Shown: positions 2,965-64,000 of the stretch, one piece after another
Layout of the letters: the number at the start of each line of letters is the position of its first letter
Position numbering within the stretch: position 1 is the stretch's first letter
Assembly (NCBI GenBank): GCA_963769425.1
Contig: CAVYLP010000003.1
Coordinates: 227,705-291,704, forward strand
Direction: 5' to 3'
Source of the DNA: Candidatus Bathyarchaeota archaeon
GTDB taxonomy: Archaea > Thermoproteota > Bathyarchaeia > TCS64
DNA length: 64,000 bases
Notes under the pieces: generated by a model
Database searches by the model: none
The model's input: only the letters and a program-made list of their open reading frames with translations
Told to the model about the DNA's origin: nothing
Made by a program: the position numbers and the translations under genes

Positions 2965-4384
2965 TTACTCGAAGGCTCCGCGTAGGAAGGGGTATAGGTC
3001 CGCGACCTGTTCCTGCACCATCGTCTGGTAGTACTGGTATAGTATGCTGACTGCCAGCAGGGCACCCATTCCGCTTCCGAAGACTCCGAAGAAGTCAGAG
3101 ATCGCCGCAAGTGCACCGACGATTGCTCCACCGATGATTGTGATCGTCGGGATGTACCTATTCAATAGGGTCACTATGGGCTGCTTGTTCCTCCTGAAAC
3201 CAGGAACCTGCATCCCTGACTCCAGTAGCTGATCTGCCATATCTTCAGCGCCCAGACCACCAATTTCAAGCCAAGTTACACTGAAAATCACACAGAAGAC
3301 TATCACGATTAACGCATAGACTAGGGCTCGGAGAGGGGCAGTCAAAACTCCTTGGAGGTACCGGGTGATGTAATATAGTAGACAAGTCCACCTGTCGCGA
3401 CTGGTTGGCCATTTGATGCAGTAAGTGAATGTTCCGAGCCAGTTGAGCCAGTTGTTGTCGTTTGCGACGTTCCATTTACTCCAGAGGAATTGACCTACCA
3501 TCTGGAAGTTAGCGAAGAGGGCGTAGGCGAGTATTACGGGTATGTTGGAGACGTAGAGGAGCTTTATAGGCATCCTACCGCGGTAGCCCCGGTACTGGCT
3601 GTGACTTATTGGGTAGCTCAACACGCATGCCCTCGACGTATATCACGAAGAGGAAGACTGCGATGGTCGTGAAGAACCCGATCATGTCCGGCGCCCCGTT
3701 TGCCCTGAAGAACCAGCTGTAGATGGGTACCCTCGTCCAGATTCCTTGGAAGAATGCCACGATGGCACCGTATGCCCTACCATCGTAGTTGATGAAGCTG
3801 AAGCTCATCCACCAGATGTTCGCTGTGATGCCTCCTACGATGAAGAGGCTTATCCCGCTGCCGATACCCCAGCCCTTCTGCACCAACTCATCGAGGAGCA
3901 TGATGATGAGTCCCGCGACAAGCAGCTGTGCAAATATCAACAATGCCTTAGTAAGGGTGACTGAGCCGTACTGGCCGCTGACGATGTATAGTGAGGCCTG
4001 GATAATGATCATGACTATGGAGAAGAATTTACTCGCGGTCGTGAATAGCCCGCGGTCCTCTGCGCTGCTCCTATCGAATGATATGATGTCTGAGCCGGCG
4101 AGCAGCTGGATTATCAGTCCAGCTGTCACTATGGGGCCTATTCCGAGCTCCATGAGGGTCCCTCTCGCTGAGGCGAAGATGACCCTGTACGCCGTGAAGG
4201 TGTCTCCTGACGTCGTTACGGGTATCCCGTAGAGCGGGATCTCGGACATGATGAAGTAAATAAGTAGGGCAAGGAGCGTCCAGATGAGCCTGTTTTGGAA
4301 GCTCACCTTTCTCTCCGGTGGCTTTACCTCTGGTATGACCCGGGAGATGGGCTTGAAGAGCTCGAGGAAGCGCAAAGCTATCAC
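2965..4384 (-). CDS. secY: Preprotein translocase SecY/Sec61-alpha, split by apparent sequencing indels
   Basis: GTLMELGIGPIVTAG, GIGSGISLFI, PIKLLYVSNIPVIL, GMQVPGFR. Frame break at about 3612 plus a compensating pair at about 3424/3360. Confidence 0.95.
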
Positions 4385-36313: not shown

Positions 36314-36550
36314 TCGATTCCTAGTGGCAGGTGCAAAAAGTGATGAATTTCCGGGATACCACCCTACTAGGAATCCACACCCAACCAGCCAGTGAGCCAT
36401 ACCACCCTACTAGGAATCAGATTCCTAGTGGCAGGTATCAGAGGGTCGAGGTGAGCACTCCGCGATTCCACCCTACTAGGTATGGGATTCCTACCCACAG
36501 GTGCGAGTCATACCATGCTACTAGGAATCCGGTTCCTAGTGGCAGGAATC
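36314..36550. repeat. Array I: eight 19-21-bp quasi-palindromic units, three arranged as head-to-head pairs
   Basis: Units start at 36316, 36355, 36398, 36420, 36464, 36486, 36509 and 36531; e.g. CATACCACCCTACTAGGAATC-A-GATTCCTAGTGGCAGGTATC. Confidence 0.9.
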
Positions 36551-36783
36551 CACGCGGGGTTAGTTGCCATGAGGAAATTCCACTATTTAATCGCCCTAAA
36601 GGGACACAGGAAGATCCATTCGGGGCTTTCGCACTATCTATTCACTATAGATACACGAGTTCGCCCTGTAATTTTGATTTTTTTCGCAGCTTTTTAACCC
36701 CCACTCGTCGAGGTCCAGAACAAATAATAATCGGTTAACTGTTGTTAATTAAAATAGAGCTAAAAAGGCTAGCTTTAAGGAAC

Positions 36784-57936: not shown

Positions 57937-58473
57937 TTAAGCGAATAGTAAGGAAGGGTAGAAATAATAACTCCAATAGTTTATGCCAATTAAAATAATG
58001 CTTAATATAATTAACATATAGAATGGTTTATGATCATTAAATATTCTAGCCATATAGTTTCTCCATCGCATTTTGAGTTCTGGTTTATTCTTATATTTCC
58101 CAGTTCTTTGAGAAAACTCAGAGGCCGCTCTTTTTAAAAGATATAGTTGACTAAAATCGTAATTATCTGAATATTTTCCTTTTTTGCTCTCCTCTTTATT
58201 CGCTTCTATAAATCCTTCCCCAGTATATGTTTTAACATACATAACTGCCTCAATAAGGATTGAATAGTATCCTGCTCTGAGTAAAAAATAAGTCATACTT
58301 AAAAGAGACATCAATATAAACACAAAGAAGTTAAAATGAAAAGTGCTTATTATATCCCGCGCACCTAAAAGGGCTATTACTGTAGCTACCAAATAGCCAA
58401 TATGAGCATGACTTTTTTGAGTAAACAAATTAATTAAAGTTGATCGAGTATTTTCTAATTCGTCCGCTACCAT
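57937..58473 (-). CDS. Hypothetical membrane protein
   Basis: 178 aa, three hydrophobic segments, AT-rich. Confidence 0.65.
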   Translation of the reverse strand: MVADELENTRSTLINLFTQKSHAHIGYLVATVIALLGARDIISTFHFNFFVFILMSLLSMTYFLLRAGYYSILIEAVMYVKTYTGEGFIEANKEESKKGKYSDNYDFSQLYLLKRAASEFSQRTGKYKNKPELKMRWRNYMARIFNDHKPFYMLIILSIILIGINYWSYYFYPSLLFA

Positions 58474-58661
58474 AATGTTTCAAATACAAGTTAATTATTA
58501 AAAATTATCGGGCATCGGGGTCGAGATATAACATCTCCCAAAGAGTGGCCCCGGCGTCCTCCATTTACTAAAAATGATGCGCGCGCGCCGAGGTGGCAGC
58601 GGCTCTCTGATACAACTCGATCGAGGAGAGTTCCGGGTGGGTGCTCATGAAACTAGGGGGC

Positions 58662-59456
58662 TCACGGCAGCGGTTGGAGCTCGCTCGGGAGTGGCTCGTG
58701 CTCCACCCAGGCCCTGATCATGGCGGCGAAGAGGTCGGGCTTCTCCATCCCCCAGTTGTGCCCGACGCCGGGGGCGACGACGCAGGGCACACCGGGGTGC
58801 TCCCCCCGAATCATGCGCGCCGACTTACTGATCAGCCCCGACTCCATCTCCCCGCAGACGACCAGCAAGCCGGACGCATCGGCTATGCTCGGCAGGGGGT
58901 AGGTCATGCTCTCCACGATCACCTGGGTGTAGAAGTCTGGGGTCATGAGCCTAGTGTCCGCCCTGAACTCGGCCTCGTACTCATCCGGGACGCTGAGCTG
59001 CCTCATGTTGGCGTGCACCATGAAGCCGGTGTTCTGGATGGGGGAGTACAGGAGGATTACCAGCTTCAGTAGGGGAGCCATGAGCCTTACGCTGCCGCTC
59101 GGCGACGTGTTCGTTCCGCTGACGATAACCCTGTCCATTAGCTCAGGGCACGTGCTCAGCAGCTGCAATGCGACCTGGCCGCCCAGGGATAGACCAACGA
59201 CGTGGACACGACCTATGGGGACGATTCCCCTGATTAGATTCGCGACCTCATCGGACGCCTTACTTATACTGATTGGGCCGTCAGCCGGGCTCAGCCCGTG
59301 CCCGGGCAGGTCCGGGACTATGCAGCGGTACCCGGGGAGCCTCTGGACCTGGGGGAGCCACGACCAGCCACTCATGCCACCCCCTGGGATGAGAACGATC
59401 ACCGGCGCATCCGAGGGGCCAGAATCCAAGTAATGTAGCAAGGAAACGCCCATCAC
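58662..59456 (-). CDS. Alpha/beta hydrolase
   Basis: PGGG, DLPGHG, GLSLG nucleophile elbow, GH. Confidence 0.92.
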   Translation of the reverse strand: MMGVSLLHYLDSGPSDAPVIVLIPGGGMSGWSWLPQVQRLPGYRCIVPDLPGHGLSPADGPISISKASDEVANLIRGIVPIGRVHVVGLSLGGQVALQLLSTCPELMDRVIVSGTNTSPSGSVRLMAPLLKLVILLYSPIQNTGFMVHANMRQLSVPDEYEAEFRADTRLMTPDFYTQVIVESMTYPLPSIADASGLLVVCGEMESGLISKSARMIRGEHPGVPCVVAPGVGHNWGMEKPDLFAAMIRAWVEHEPLPSELQPLP

Positions 59457-59460
59457 CCCT

Positions 59461-60381
59461 TTATTTTGGGCCAGATGACTTCGCAGCCTCCTCTTTGAGC
59501 TTCCACTTCGTGTACTCCATGAGGCCGATTATATTTGGGATGGCGGTCCTGCGCCTGCTGTCGTCTTCATCGATGCTGAGGCGGAGGATGGGGTCCTGCT
59601 CCTTTAGTAAGTCCCAGACCCCGTTCAGGTCCATCCCCTCTTTCACGCCACGCTCAACGATCTCGGCCCAAGTCTGCAACTCCCCCCTGTAGAACCTGAG
59701 CTTCTTCACCGCATCGTAGGCGTAGCCGAAGTGGCTGTAGCAGACTATCTCGGGACGGAGGTCGATGAGCTTGTCGAGGGTCTCGATGGCTTTGTCGGTG
59801 TTGAAGGGGGGTGGCGTTATTGGGAAGTTGTTCCCACTCCTCTTGTTGAAGCTCCCCCCGCAGTCCCCAAGGATTATTATCTTGTAGTCGGGCTCCCAGA
59901 AGCTCTGCCCGTGGCTCGCGTGCCCCGGCGTCCAGAGAACCTTGAGTGTCGCCCCCTGTAGATCGAGGACCTCCCCGTCCTTCGACTCCTGGATCTTCAT
60001 CGGGTTCAGCCCCTTAACTTCCCCGTACTTCTCGTAGGCGGGGCCGAAGAACTGCTTCGCGGAGGCAGCGAGTCGACTAGGGTCGACTAGGTGCTCCACC
60101 GCCTTCGGGTGGGCGTAGACGTCGGCCTCGGGGTGTGCCTCTATGAGCTTCCACGCGCCACCGCCGTGGTCGAGGTGGATGTGGGTGAGCCCAACATAGC
60201 GTAGTTGCCTTATCCCCAGCTCGCGAAGCCCCTCGATGGCGCCGGGTATCTGGGTCGTCGGTCCAGGGTCGATGAGCATAGGCTCCTCCCCCTTCACCAC
60301 GTATGTCCCCAGCACCCCCTGGGCACCGTGGTATGGTGAGTCGATGAGGTAGACGGGGCCTAGAATCTGCTGGGTGAGCAT
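59461..60381 (-). CDS. Metallo-beta-lactamase-fold hydrolase
   Basis: IDPGP, THIHLDHGGG, TPGHASH, SHFG. Confidence 0.92.
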   Translation of the reverse strand: MLTQQILGPVYLIDSPYHGAQGVLGTYVVKGEEPMLIDPGPTTQIPGAIEGLRELGIRQLRYVGLTHIHLDHGGGAWKLIEAHPEADVYAHPKAVEHLVDPSRLAASAKQFFGPAYEKYGEVKGLNPMKIQESKDGEVLDLQGATLKVLWTPGHASHGQSFWEPDYKIIILGDCGGSFNKRSGNNFPITPPPFNTDKAIETLDKLIDLRPEIVCYSHFGYAYDAVKKLRFYRGELQTWAEIVERGVKEGMDLNGVWDLLKEQDPILRLSIDEDDSRRRTAIPNIIGLMEYTKWKLKEEAAKSSGPK

Positions 60382-60406
60382 ACTTCACCCATGCCTCGTC
60401 GCGTTT

Positions 60407-60991
60407 TTAATCCCTTCGAGTGTTGGACCAGGCGAAGGAGTTGACTATGGCGTTTAGGACGATGCTTGCGCCGATTATAATTATGAAGCCAGGGAGCAGG
60501 GCGGAGCCACTTATGGACCCCTGCCCGTATAGCATGATCAAGTATGCTATGGCGAAGTTACCGAGGGCGCTGACCATGTTGCCGATTCCCCTCATCACCC
60601 GCCCGGAGGCCATCCTTAGCCCACCCTCGAGTATCCCCCAGGCGCCCATGATCACGAAGAAGAGGAAGATGGGCTGCGCCAGGATCAGTGGGAGCATGGT
60701 AGGGCCCGCGGTCCAGGTGCGGAACCAGGCAACGATCTCGTCCCAGACCCACGGGTACTGGAGGTACACCCACGCGATGGCAATGAGGAAGACGCCGAAC
60801 CCGACCCCGTTGAGGTAGTCGGGGCCGCGGTCGAGCCTCTCTACGCGATCCATGCGTCTCTCCCACCTGCGCTCCCACCGGCCCTCGAATGGCGGGGTGG
60901 GGGGAACAGGCTCACCCATCTTGTGCCCGCACCTATCACAGAAAGCGGCGTCGTCGGGAAGCTCCTTACCACACTTCGGGCAGTAGATCAT
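60407..60991 (-). CDS. Zinc-ribbon membrane protein
   Basis: YCPKCG...FCDRCG followed by four TM segments. Confidence 0.82.
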   Translation of the reverse strand: MIYCPKCGKELPDDAAFCDRCGHKMGEPVPPTPPFEGRWERRWERRMDRVERLDRGPDYLNGVGFGVFLIAIAWVYLQYPWVWDEIVAWFRTWTAGPTMLPLILAQPIFLFFVIMGAWGILEGGLRMASGRVMRGIGNMVSALGNFAIAYLIMLYGQGSISGSALLPGFIIIIGASIVLNAIVNSFAWSNTRRD

Positions 60992-61092
60992 GCCAACCAC
61001 TGAGATGCGAGGGTTTAGGGAGAGATATAAGGATAGGGAAAACCGTGCCAACCCATTTTAACCCGGCAAACCCACTAACCCCCTGAACAAAG

Positions 61093-62037
61093 ATGCGCGT
61101 AGCCGTCACAGGGGGAGCGGGATACATAGGCTCCACGCTGATAAGGAATCTACTCGCCGAGAGGCACAGTGTCGCCTCCTTAGACAATCAAGCGAAGGGG
61201 GACTACTGCCACCTACGCGACCTTAACGCAAAGAGCCTCACCTTAATCGAGGGGGATATAAGGAACGCCGGTGACCTCGACACGATCCTCAAAGGGGCCG
61301 ACGCGGTGGTCCACATGGCGGCACTCTCCGACCTCGACGTCTGCAACGAAGACCCCGAGGAAGCGGTCTCTGTCAACATCTATGGCACCCACAAGGTGCT
61401 AGAAGCCGCCGAGCGAAACGGGGTTCGGAGGCTCATCTTCTGTAGCAGCGCGGCCATCTACGGCGTCCCCTCGAGCCTGCCCGTCACCGAGAGGCACGCC
61501 CTCCACCCCCTCAACCTCTACGGCGTCACAAAGCTCGCGGGGGAGAAGCTCATCGACGCCCACCACGTGAACCATGGCCTTGAGACCGTCAACCTGAGGT
61601 TCGGAAACGTCTACGGCGTCGGACTCTACACGAGCTGGGTCGGCGTCATCCCCAAGTTCGTCGCCCTCGGCCTGGAGGGAAAGCCGCTCACAGTATACGG
61701 GGACGGCGAGAGCACCCGCGACTTCGTCCACGTCGAGGACATATCCAGGGCTATAACGTTGGGCCTGACGAAAGAGGGCATACGCAACGAGACCTTCAAT
61801 ATCGGCAGCGAGACCACTACGGTGAACAAGATAGCGAGCCTCGTCGCCTCGGAGATCGAGAAGGCCACTGGGAAGCGCCCAGAGGTCACCCACCTCCCCC
61901 CGCGACCCGGGGAGACCAAGGAGTTCAGCTACAACACATCCAAGATAGAGAGAGCCTTAGGATTCAAGCCCAAATGGAGACTCAGGGACGGTGTCAGGCA
62001 GATAATCGAGTACCGGTTGAAGAACCAGAAGCAGTGA
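61093..62037 (+). CDS. NAD-dependent epimerase/dehydratase (GalE-like)
   Basis: TGGAGYIG, SSAAIYG, YGVTK, RDFVHVED. Confidence 0.94.
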   Translation: MRVAVTGGAGYIGSTLIRNLLAERHSVASLDNQAKGDYCHLRDLNAKSLTLIEGDIRNAGDLDTILKGADAVVHMAALSDLDVCNEDPEEAVSVNIYGTHKVLEAAERNGVRRLIFCSSAAIYGVPSSLPVTERHALHPLNLYGVTKLAGEKLIDAHHVNHGLETVNLRFGNVYGVGLYTSWVGVIPKFVALGLEGKPLTVYGDGESTRDFVHVEDISRAITLGLTKEGIRNETFNIGSETTTVNKIASLVASEIEKATGKRPEVTHLPPRPGETKEFSYNTSKIERALGFKPKWRLRDGVRQIIEYRLKNQKQ

Positions 62038-62046
62038 CGGCGGGGA

Positions 62047-62277
62047 CTACTCGAGGACCACCATCGTCAGAGTTGACCTGACGTGGTTGAGGCGCCTAAC
62101 CTTGCTCGTTATGACGTCCTTGATCTCCTGCATCGTGGGGGCTTCCAGACGGACGACGAAGTCGTAGACCCCATAGACGCCATATACCTCCTTGACCTCG
62201 GGTATCTCCTTCAGAGCCTTGCTGACATCGGTCCCCTCACCGAGATCAGTGTTGATCAAGACAAATGCAACGCTCAT
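62047..62277 (-). CDS. Lrp/AsnC ligand-binding (RAM) domain protein
   Basis: AFVLI...VYGVYD...VRSTLTM, 76 aa. Confidence 0.9.
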   Translation of the reverse strand: MSVAFVLINTDLGEGTDVSKALKEIPEVKEVYGVYGVYDFVVRLEAPTMQEIKDVITSKVRRLNHVRSTLTMVVLE

Positions 62278-62713
62278 GGATGAACCTCAAATGATCCCTC
62301 AACGGGAACTGATTTAACATTTTCTAGGGTTGAGACGTGCGGGAACATATTGTAAATACAGTCAGGCTATGATATTGCCATGTTCATGTTTCTAACGATA
62401 TAAAAGTAAGTCAAGACCATCAATCATCCAAAGCACCCTGAACCTAGACCCAATCCGACTGAATTTCCATCAGCCTTCTCCGGTAAGGTTGGTAAGTATG
62501 AATCGGCGCGTTTTTCAAGTCTCCCCCATGATGGTAGCATAGTATAAGCGTTTTACAGAATAGCTTAATGACTCCTCACCGGTCCTTTGCGATGATTCAT
62601 CTGAGATTGAGTTCACCCGTATGGGTATCGACTGGAGAAGTGGAGGTTCGTTGGGTGGAGTAACATGTTTGCTGGTTGGTCGCGTATGCCTCGCTGGTAG
62701 GAATAAGGAAAAA

Positions 62714-63038
62714 CATCACTTTTTGCACCTGCCACTAGGAATCGAGACTCGTTACGCTAACCAACAGTTGGTCTGTGGTACACAGTAAGGGGGTACAACG
62801 GTACCCGGTAGGAGGGTACTTGGTACCATGTAGGAGGGCACCGACGGTACCCAGTAGGGTGGTACCATGGTACCCTGTAGCGTGGAACCGGCGCACGGGA
62901 TCTGTGTAACATGGTACCATGTAGCAGGGAACTCGATACCACGTAGTATGGTATATGGTACCCTGTAGGGTGGTACGGGGGACCCATTAGGGGGGTATAA
63001 GGTTTTTTCCACGTCTCGGTACCATGTAGCAGGGTACA
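62714..63038 (+). repeat. Array II: ten co-oriented 21-bp units plus a 32-bp inverted copy of the start of array I
   Basis: GGTACC-NNGTAGNNN-GGTACN units at 62777, 62800, 62822, 62846, 62869, 62913, 62935, 62957, 62979 and 63018. Confidence 0.92.
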
Positions 63039-63493
63039 GCGTGTTTTACGCCTCCTTTTGCTCTTCCTAGTGAAGATAAATCTTCGTTTGGAGGAGGACT
63101 GCTGAGACATTCAGGCTATGTGCGAGGCGGTCTGGGCCTCCTCTACTGGTGTCGTTCAAGATGGTTCTTTTCGCTCCCATGGCTAGTTGATGCCTTGCCT
63201 TGGGGCATGTAGAAAACTCATGGGATTTGCTCCTGCAGCAGGGAATATTGTGTGTAAGGATGGTGGTGAGCCGCTATGCTGGTATCCTTCTTTCTTCAGG
63301 GTAGGGGGTAGATGGATGGGGTATTCAACATGATTTCAAAGAGGAAACAGAAGCGTATACCGGCGACTTCTAATTTAACCTTGGAAAGTTGACTTTTACA
63401 GGTAAAAATCGGGGATTGTTCGTTTAGTGTCGAGAAACAATTCGACACAATTCTTAACCCAAACGCCGACGGAGGTCAACCTAGGCGTAGGGC

Positions 63494-64000
63494 TTGGGTC
63501 TGCATAGGGGAGTATCTATAGTCGGCGCGGGGATGACTAGATTTCACAACAGGCTCCACGTCGATAAGACGGGGAGGGAACTGTTCGTTGAGGCTGCACT
63601 CGACGCGGCTGGATCCGTTGACAATGGCTTCAGATTCAGAGACGCTGGAGCTCTCTTTGTCGGCAATTTCACGAGCGACGTCTTCGAGGGGCAGGCGCAC
63701 ACGGCCGCGGTGATGGCGGATTGGTTGGGCATTAACCCTACACCAGCTTATCGCATTGAGGACGCATGCGCGAGCTCGGGTGCTGCACTCAACCTCGGAG
63801 CCATTACAATCGCATCGGGGATGGCTGACGTCGTCATAGTCGGCGGCGTCGAGAAGATGAGTGGGCTCACCACAGATCAGGTCACGGACGCGCTCGCCCT
63901 CGCGGCTGACTCATCCTTCGAGACCTCCGTCGGCTTCACCTTCCCATCTATATACGCGGCGATAGCCTCGTCATACTTCAAGAAGTACAACGCCACCTGG
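63494..64000 (+). CDS. Thiolase (archaeal acetyl-CoA C-acetyltransferase family), truncated by window end
   Basis: Manual translation VSIVGAGMTRF...RIEDACASSG...VGGVEKMS. Confidence 0.92.
   Translation, partial: MGLHRGVSIVGAGMTRFHNRLHVDKTGRELFVEAALDAAGSVDNGFRFRDAGALFVGNFTSDVFEGQAHTAAVMADWLGINPTPAYRIEDACASSGAALNLGAITIASGMADVVIVGGVEKMSGLTTDQVTDALALAADSSFETSVGFTFPSIYAAIASSYFKKYNATW

Follow-up and report, generated by a model that had tools for sequence, protein, structure and literature searches.

REP and BIME elements are the classic dispersed mosaic repeats of Proteobacteria, and the MITEs of archaea and bacteria are non-coding, multi-copy and insertion-polymorphic. Among archaea, the Borgs of Methanoperedens carry tandem repeats whose copies are near-perfect, and parC of R1 contains phased direct repeats in two blocks across a longer gap, which are thought to seed a protein filament. 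Two papers describe REPs as true palindromes in which GTAG stands unpaired at one end and whose orientation alternates within BIMEs (PMC3733652, PMC2817692); in the former, the word archaea occurs only in the reference list. Our literature searches found no account of arrays such as those described below in Bathyarchaeota or other archaea. Here, we analysed a row of ten co-oriented units, Array II, in a Bathyarchaeota genome, and we find that it belongs to a mosaic family of intergenic repeats that is dispersed in the genome and specific to the lineage; for this family we also document copy number, lineage restriction, insertion, inversion and constraint at motif positions. Since Array II is one of about 28 similar arrays and lies on a 1-kb insertion absent in sister species, it looks like a lineage-specific repeat element made up of protein-recognition sites, and not like a replication origin or a centromere. 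By analogy, the family is best read as REP/BIME-like in distribution and iteron-like in geometry.

Array II (62777-63038, + strand) lies near the end of the window (the whole stretch of DNA that was analysed, 64,000 bp), in a gap of 1,216 bp (62278-63493). On one side of the gap is the gene of a 76-aa protein with an Lrp/AsnC ligand-binding domain (62047-62277, - strand; PF01037, E 2e-17) and on the other a thiolase gene that extends past the window end (63494-64000, + strand; PF00108, E 1.1e-16); by Pfam, the genes flanking the array are an epimerase, the Lrp-domain protein and the thiolase. A previous sequence-only reading had described a gene-free gap of ~1.2 kb, in agreement with this measurement, and the ORFs inside the gap have no Pfam family. 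Searching the window for GGTACCNNGTAGNNNGGTAC with up to three mismatches gave 16 matches, versus 1.15 expected (mean of 100 dinucleotide-preserving shuffles; sd 1.05, largest 4). Ten are the + strand units of Array II, two lie on the - strand inside it and are echoes, because the arms are self-complementary, three fall in a second array, Array I (within 36356-36529, - strand), and one is at 4221.

The ten units have the form GGTACC-NN-GTAG-NNN-GGTAC. Five precede the first irregular step: units 1 (62777-62797, two mismatches), 2 (62800-62820, none), 3 (62822-62842, one), 4 (62846-62866, none) and 5 (62869-62889, one). The 44-bp step that follows is occupied by a filler (62888-62912, + strand), probably a decayed unit, found at the same place in all four paralogous arrays (see below). 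Units 6 (62913-62933, one mismatch), 7 (62935-62955, two mismatches, with both arms altered to GATACC...GGTAT), 8 (62957-62977, none) and 9 (62979-62999, three) are then followed by a conserved end motif, GGTAT and then six T (62994-63017, + strand), which fills a 39-bp step and is present at the end of most arrays, and finally by unit 10 (63018-63038, no mismatch). This pattern search exactly reproduced the start-to-start spacings given previously (23, 22, 24, 23, 44, 22, 22, 22 and 39 bp). Within the array, the arm and GTAG positions are identical in 7 to 10 of the ten units (13 of these 15 positions in 9 or 10), and the five free positions, NN and NNN, in 5 to 6 units. Tandem Repeats Finder reported no more than the initial 4.6 copies (62776-62880; period 23, 71% matches, score 96).

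The surroundings of the array are themselves composed of repeated modules. Upstream modules occupy 62463-62745 (+ strand), with 62502-62743 being 94% identical to C3:176588-176827, and include a box made of an A-run and a T-run (62705-62744, + strand) that ends in an inverted variant unit and has many copies in the genome, all ending at this point. A genome-trained matrix detected two variant units in opposite orientation directly upstream of Array II (62683-62705, - strand, 14.6 bits; 62721-62743, - strand, with a GTGG core, 17.4 bits). The co-orientation noted earlier thus holds for the ten units of Array II but not for these two neighbours. On the right, a flanking module (63042-63135, + strand) is common to C4:396680-396775, and a second, unit-like box (63181-63246, + strand) is related to both the 62705-62744 box and a congener sequence (L014:868-958); its last base is the right breakpoint of an inversion (see below). 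Other assignments were rejected: a CRISPR array, as the units abut with 1-4 bp between them and there are no spacers, and, from the sequence, C/D-box (no boxes) and type III toxin-antitoxin (no toxin gene) readings. Elsewhere in the window, GC content drops sharply between 58000 and 58500 (0.29-0.34, versus 0.55-0.69 around), over an ORF at 57937-58473 (- strand); this stretch is possibly foreign DNA.

The genome-wide scan that the sequence-only reading had proposed was run on the window's own genome (2.55 Mb, six contigs, 91% complete). A strict pattern with up to two mismatches gave 43 matches versus 3 for a backwards control, a general pattern 70 versus 0, and an iteratively built matrix, at 12 bits or more, 375 versus 95 for the reversed matrix. 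Of the matrix matches, 271 fall in 28 arrays of at least three units each, located on five of the six contigs, and none of these 271 units overlaps a gene in rough gene calls. The core of the family is asymmetric, TWCC-NN-GTAG-NNN-GGWA, with outer arms that vary from array to array; the matrix consensus is TWCC-YW-GTAG-SNK-GG(W)A(Y), its 5' half being better conserved. Arm types across clusters include GTACC/GGTAC, GTTCC/GGAAC, ATTCC/GGAAT or GGTAT, GATCC/GGATC and ATACC/GGTAT, and palindromic GGTACC arms characterise the Array II sub-family, not the motif as such. The genome shows no avoidance of GGTACC (573 observed versus 551 expected). Of 227 steps between co-oriented neighbouring units, 135 are 20-25 bp long, 24 are 42-48 bp and 21 are 63-70 bp; another 20, of 38-40 bp, span the conserved end motif. 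As the unit step can be anything between 21 and 24 bp, helical phasing is not strict.

The arrays lie between convergent genes in 11 cases, divergent genes in 5 and tandem genes in 12. Convergent gaps are enriched (11/28, versus 19% of all gaps; binomial p 0.010). Between tandem genes, the arrays do not follow the transcription of their flanks (3 co-directional, 6 opposite, 3 mixed). Their neighbours are ordinary metabolic or housekeeping genes by Pfam (six flanking genes in the window and ten neighbours of other arrays), and the only neighbour genes that recur around 24 repeat loci are small groups of metabolic paralogues. Array I (36316-36553) belongs to the same family: it contains seven units with ATTCC arms in both orientations and is 94% identical to C3:378738-378999. 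Just outside the window, an 18-unit array of the family (C3:227206-227690) ends 15 bp before window base 1 and is 95.5% identical to C6:762648-763179. General-pattern matches are strongly strand-biased in contig coordinates (56 forward, 14 reverse), and the arrays of contig C4 are all forward, contig orientation being arbitrary. A second non-coding repeat family (~430-590 bp, 81-92% identity, no long ORF) is found at C1:182405-182981 and in at least nine other places; it looks unrelated to the arrays.

The family is narrowly distributed. With up to one mismatch allowed, the GGTACC version matches the window's own genome 28 times and each of 40 relatives 0-2 times; the general pattern has 70 matches (control 0) in the former, 13 (control 0) in congener G002 and 3 in G017, and the remaining 38 relatives have 0-2 each. 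Repeats may be under-assembled, and thus under-counted, in most congeners, whose assemblies are fragmented; the empty orthologous sites described below are direct evidence for absence despite this fragmentation. A two-unit pattern gave five single matches in the genome_contigs collection (185,579 species), the one true relative being again G002. This congener has shorter elements with the same boxes, two of them adjoining tRNA genes. It also contains a ~700-bp palindromic element (L058, G002:C40, ~6973) with two opposite arrays around its centre and near-perfect ~55-bp inverted repeats as its bounds. No similar DNA was found in 72,556 plasmid records, and viral contigs gave no match. In metagenomes, the two-unit pattern matched 11 loci, five of which are one low-GC marine locus (L065, L067, L068, L071 and L073). 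The other six were taken as chance pattern matches: they are coding 21-nt repeats (L064, L072) or unrelated arrays by a UvrD helicase, an oxidoreductase or unassigned ORFs.

Comparison with congeners shows that Array II lies on an insertion. The orthologues of the Lrp-domain gene are 84-99% identical, and of the 14 orthologous loci fetched, 13 align with the window on either side, whereas L032 yielded no alignment rows. In all 13, a block at about 62375-63402 is missing from the Lrp-thiolase intergenic site, and in one (L021) the flanks are contiguous to the base (62374 joins 1404 and 63403 joins 1405), which defines a block of 1,028 bp (62375-63402) with TA on both sides. Inside this block, 62463-63135 is a mosaic of modules that have genomic copies up to 94% identical; its outermost parts have no other copy in the genome. 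A second insertion was found between paralogous segments: a 669-bp array-bearing block (C6:1008588-1009256) is absent from a 97%-identical paralogous junction (C3:47191/47192). The two segments belong to a 4.9-kb segmental duplication (C3:47191-52075 and C6:1003708-1008587, 97% identity), the C6 copy being followed by the 669-bp insertion. This block also has TA at both sides, and its ends are unrelated to those of the 1,028-bp block. TA at two of two junction pairs is a candidate target duplication, though a weak one, as two bases could be chance. Other sites are less clear-cut: at the Array I site, congeners G008 and G002 have a small - strand ORF of ~100 aa in place of the repeat, the intergenic DNA at the paralogue site at C4:177.8 kb is too diverged for its ends to be placed, and the C6:520 kb site is occupied in G002 by an unrelated gene and AT-rich DNA.

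The block has also been rearranged. An 824-bp segment that contains all the repeat modules (62423-63246) is inverted in another population: joins of 62422 to 63246 and of 62423 to 63395, both between opposite strands, are seen in records 20 and 21 of the run X3 contigs, whose flanking genes are ~97% identical. In run X2, a loose end after 62424 resembles the reverse complement of 63246 downwards, in agreement with the X3 inversion. These data come from contigs of four DNA runs, none of which covers 62820-62940. There are no inverted repeats at the inversion breakpoints or at the block ends, and 2 bp are shared at one joint.

How the motif evolves can be followed in the three paralogues of Array II (C4:177998-178240, C4:396463-396675 and C6:520434-520643; 77-79% identity). 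The four GGTACC arrays match one another unit for unit, and their irregular 44- and 39-bp steps correspond as well; whole arrays were therefore duplicated. Pairwise differences among them amount to 48/724 (6.6%) at motif positions and 183/573 (32%) elsewhere (Fisher p 7e-33, in an alignment of four paralogues only that is partly anchored by the motif itself), so that the motif is constrained; in the same alignment, 15 of 134 motif columns are variable versus 58 of 103 others. Units had been proposed to evolve as recognition sites and not as slippage copies. In support of this, the arms and GTAG are kept while the other positions drift, both within the array and among the four paralogues, a pattern that has the look of selection on a recognition site and is unlike recent slippage.

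We therefore considered a model that we rate as having about an even chance of being right: the units would be recognition sites of a putative DNA-binding protein, and the arrays multi-protein platforms that are spread and flipped by recombination. The building block is a ~20-bp asymmetric site in which 2 bp separate TWCC from GTAG and 3 bp separate GTAG from GGWA; such sites follow one another head-to-tail every 21-24 bp, and the conserved A-run/T-run box closes the row. Each unit would be recognised by a putative protein encoded elsewhere in the genome, and a run of units would load a row of such proteins, so that the array would act as a nucleoprotein platform. Whole arrays with their boxes would then be copied, moved and inverted between intergenic sites via recombination. 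Here, protein binding, cooperativity and the means of spread are what we infer. Site-like evolution and iteron-like geometry are consistent with the nucleoprotein platform of the sequence-only reading, in which protein binding is likewise deduced; a reading of the array as one special locus is not supported by the genome-wide data.

An unlikely alternative is that the arrays are transcribed and function as RNA or as single-stranded hairpin repeats, either as REP-like 3' stabilisers or terminators or as a sponge with GUAG loops. The arms of Array II are perfect palindromes that could pair around a 9-nt loop with GTAG inside, a two-sided arm change via a G-T intermediate is seen in one unit, the array is followed by the six-T run, and the A-run/T-run box provides a T-run on both strands. 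The convergent-gene enrichment and the folding z-scores (-2.6 on the + strand, -3.1 on the - strand) would also fit. Nevertheless, although the stem-loop palindrome is true of the GGTACC sub-family, the arms often fail to pair across the family: of the 140 units spaced by 9 bp, 67 are complementary and 48 T-T at the central arm position. At the outer variable position, 90 of these 140 are complementary and 27 G-T, and the commonest arm type of all, ATTCC...GGTAT, is non-complementary. Moreover, the predicted folds pair different units and contain no unit hairpins, array orientation does not track the flanking genes, and Rfam gave no match at E of 1 or less over 58000-64000 and six related loci, apart from two tRNAs and three chance-level matches below threshold (E 0.08-0.24). 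The non-pairing arms, the folds between units and the Rfam result lead us to favour recognition of double-stranded DNA by a putative protein over a structured RNA. As for a REP-type mobilising enzyme, Y1/RAYT (PF01797) had no match in the 91%-complete genome, in a search to which control genomes responded.

It is rather improbable that the family is a selfish, non-autonomous MITE-like transposon, whose units would be stacked transposase-binding sites and whose constraint would reflect copies still able to move. The insertions are polymorphic both between species and between paralogous segments, the TA dinucleotides flank both of the junction pairs, the segment is inverted between strains with 2 bp shared at a joint, the family is confined to one lineage, and the genome has IS110-family genes, which insert without inverted ends. 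However, the two inserted blocks have ends that are similar neither to one another nor to other copies, there are no terminal inverted repeats, and the element found at the Array I site has taken the place of a small gene instead of being cleanly inserted. A master-copy model also fails to account for ten units of one resident array keeping their motif with the other positions randomised. We searched the genome for mobility and HUH families (PF01797, PF13358, PF00589, PF00239, PF07282, PF01548 and PF01609). IS630-type DDE, resolvase and TnpB gave no matches; one tyrosine recombinase/integrase, three IS110-family and six DDE_Tnp_1 matches were found, which together with Orc1/Cdc6 lie 4.9-118 kb from the nearest array, so that every transposase match is at least 4.9 kb away from one. 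Two IS110-family copies, C3:327700-329800 and C4:252000-253700, are 94% identical and lie beside a DDE_Tnp_1 gene, the C4 copy looking truncated.

The possibility that Array II represents the iterons of a replication origin, or a centromere-like partition site, of the chromosome or of an integrated replicon is very unlikely. Ten ~21-bp direct repeats in blocks, at 22-24 bp steps, do recall such sites, and the same pattern finds true iterons by a Rep_3 initiator in 5 of the 11 metagenome loci. In this marine locus, the Rep_3 gene (Rep3_N E 3.5e-10, Rep3_C E 1.6e-16) is immediately preceded by six or seven 22-bp units of the pattern; in L065:11900-13465, and alike in L067, L068, L071 and L073, the 22-bp iterons are followed by four 9-bp direct repeats and then by the gene, an orderly iteron origin on a replicon unrelated by descent to the window. 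As the same pattern and period occur in real Rep_3 iterons, an array of sites so sized and spaced is capable of binding proteins. The geometry that had suggested iterons is thus partly borne out: the array has tandem direct repeats in the ~17-22 bp range at roughly two helical turns, with a period and unit size that match Rep_3 iterons, but strict phasing is not kept and the other features of an iteron origin, a cognate initiator gene nearby and one or few loci per replicon, are missing. The assumption of a single special locus (an origin, a plasmid iteron set or a centromere) is not supported, given the 28 arrays on five of six contigs, the absence of the 1,028-bp block in congeners and the housekeeping neighbours, here the epimerase, Lrp-domain and thiolase genes. 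In addition, Rep3_N and Rep3_C have no match in the 91%-complete genome even at E 0.1, the single Orc1/Cdc6 match (Cdc6_C, C1:24396-24674) is 86 kb from the nearest array, and neither the plasmid records nor the viral contigs contain similar DNA. Within 1.5 kb of the Orc1/Cdc6 gene, we found nothing convincing as an ORB-like repeat, and among the six window flanking genes and ten neighbours of other arrays Pfam identified no partition genes (ParA with a ParB, ParR or AspA-like partner).

A functionless minisatellite, produced by slippage and unequal crossing-over, is a still poorer candidate, which we regard as highly improbable. Spacings that fall in multiples of ~22 bp, as in the step classes above, and the variation of arm type and array length between loci would be expected of it. 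Recent slippage should however leave near-identical whole units; within Array II, motif positions are mostly 90-100% kept while their neighbours drift to 50-60%, and the paralogues differ less often at motif than at other positions (6.6% versus 32%). Finally, a conserved repeat protein, the finding that the sequence-only reading had named as fatal to its proposal, can be dismissed with near certainty: a 117-aa ORF does run across Array II (62757-63110, - strand), but in every array all three - strand frames are open, because the unit has no stop triplets on that strand, the 22-24 bp period is not a multiple of three, the paralogues carry 1-bp and other indels out of frame, and the ORF has no relative among 5.8 billion protein clusters searched and no Pfam family.

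Returning to recognition sites for a putative DNA-binding protein, a bolder extension, which we hold to be doubtful, is that the family represents a new class in archaea, namely phased arrays of binding sites that are dispersed and kept by selection, in which the shared core and the array-specific outer arms would recruit one or more related winged-helix-type proteins into filaments, independently of any known transposase, RAYT or initiator. Were this true, the arrays could possibly help to organise the chromosome, or they could be chromosomal 'decoy iterons' by which initiators of incoming plasmids or viruses are titrated. With about 270 natural variants of a single 20-bp site, whose constrained and free positions are clearly distinct, the genome amounts to a specificity map for finding the putative binding protein. 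The recent insertion and inversion recorded in this genome could show how transposase-poor genomes reshuffle intergenic DNA. The locus also carries a caution for annotation, in that an array may look like textbook iterons without marking an origin or a centromere.

Among known systems, the resemblance to REP/BIME elements concerns distribution: a short, high-copy unit that is strictly intergenic and species-specific, mosaic arrays, an excess between convergent genes and a GTAG in the unit (PMC3733652, PMC2817692). Unlike in REPs, GTAG is here placed between the arms, the arms are often non-pairing, units run head-to-tail and there is no RAYT. With Borg repeats of Methanoperedens the arrays share the property of being short intergenic tandem repeats in archaeal DNA, but units here have just a motif in common. 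Like MITEs, they are non-coding and multi-copy, with insertions polymorphic among relatives and a possible TA flank; unlike MITEs, they lack terminal inverted repeats and common ends, and no related autonomous element turned up among the six transposase/recombinase families searched. The two direct-repeat blocks and the longer gap of Array II recall parC of R1, from which it differs in having no partition genes among the checked neighbours and many fellow arrays in the genome. The closest geometry is that of the iterons of Rep_3 (winged-helix) initiators. These are placed upstream of the initiator gene, once per replicon, whereas here there are 28 arrays, no Rep_3 gene and housekeeping flanks. 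Nevertheless, both consist of ~20-bp direct repeats stepped by 22 bp, in rows of six or seven to ten, with asymmetric sites in which free positions separate conserved blocks, and the marine Rep_3 iteron unit fits the same degenerate pattern as the arrays described here.
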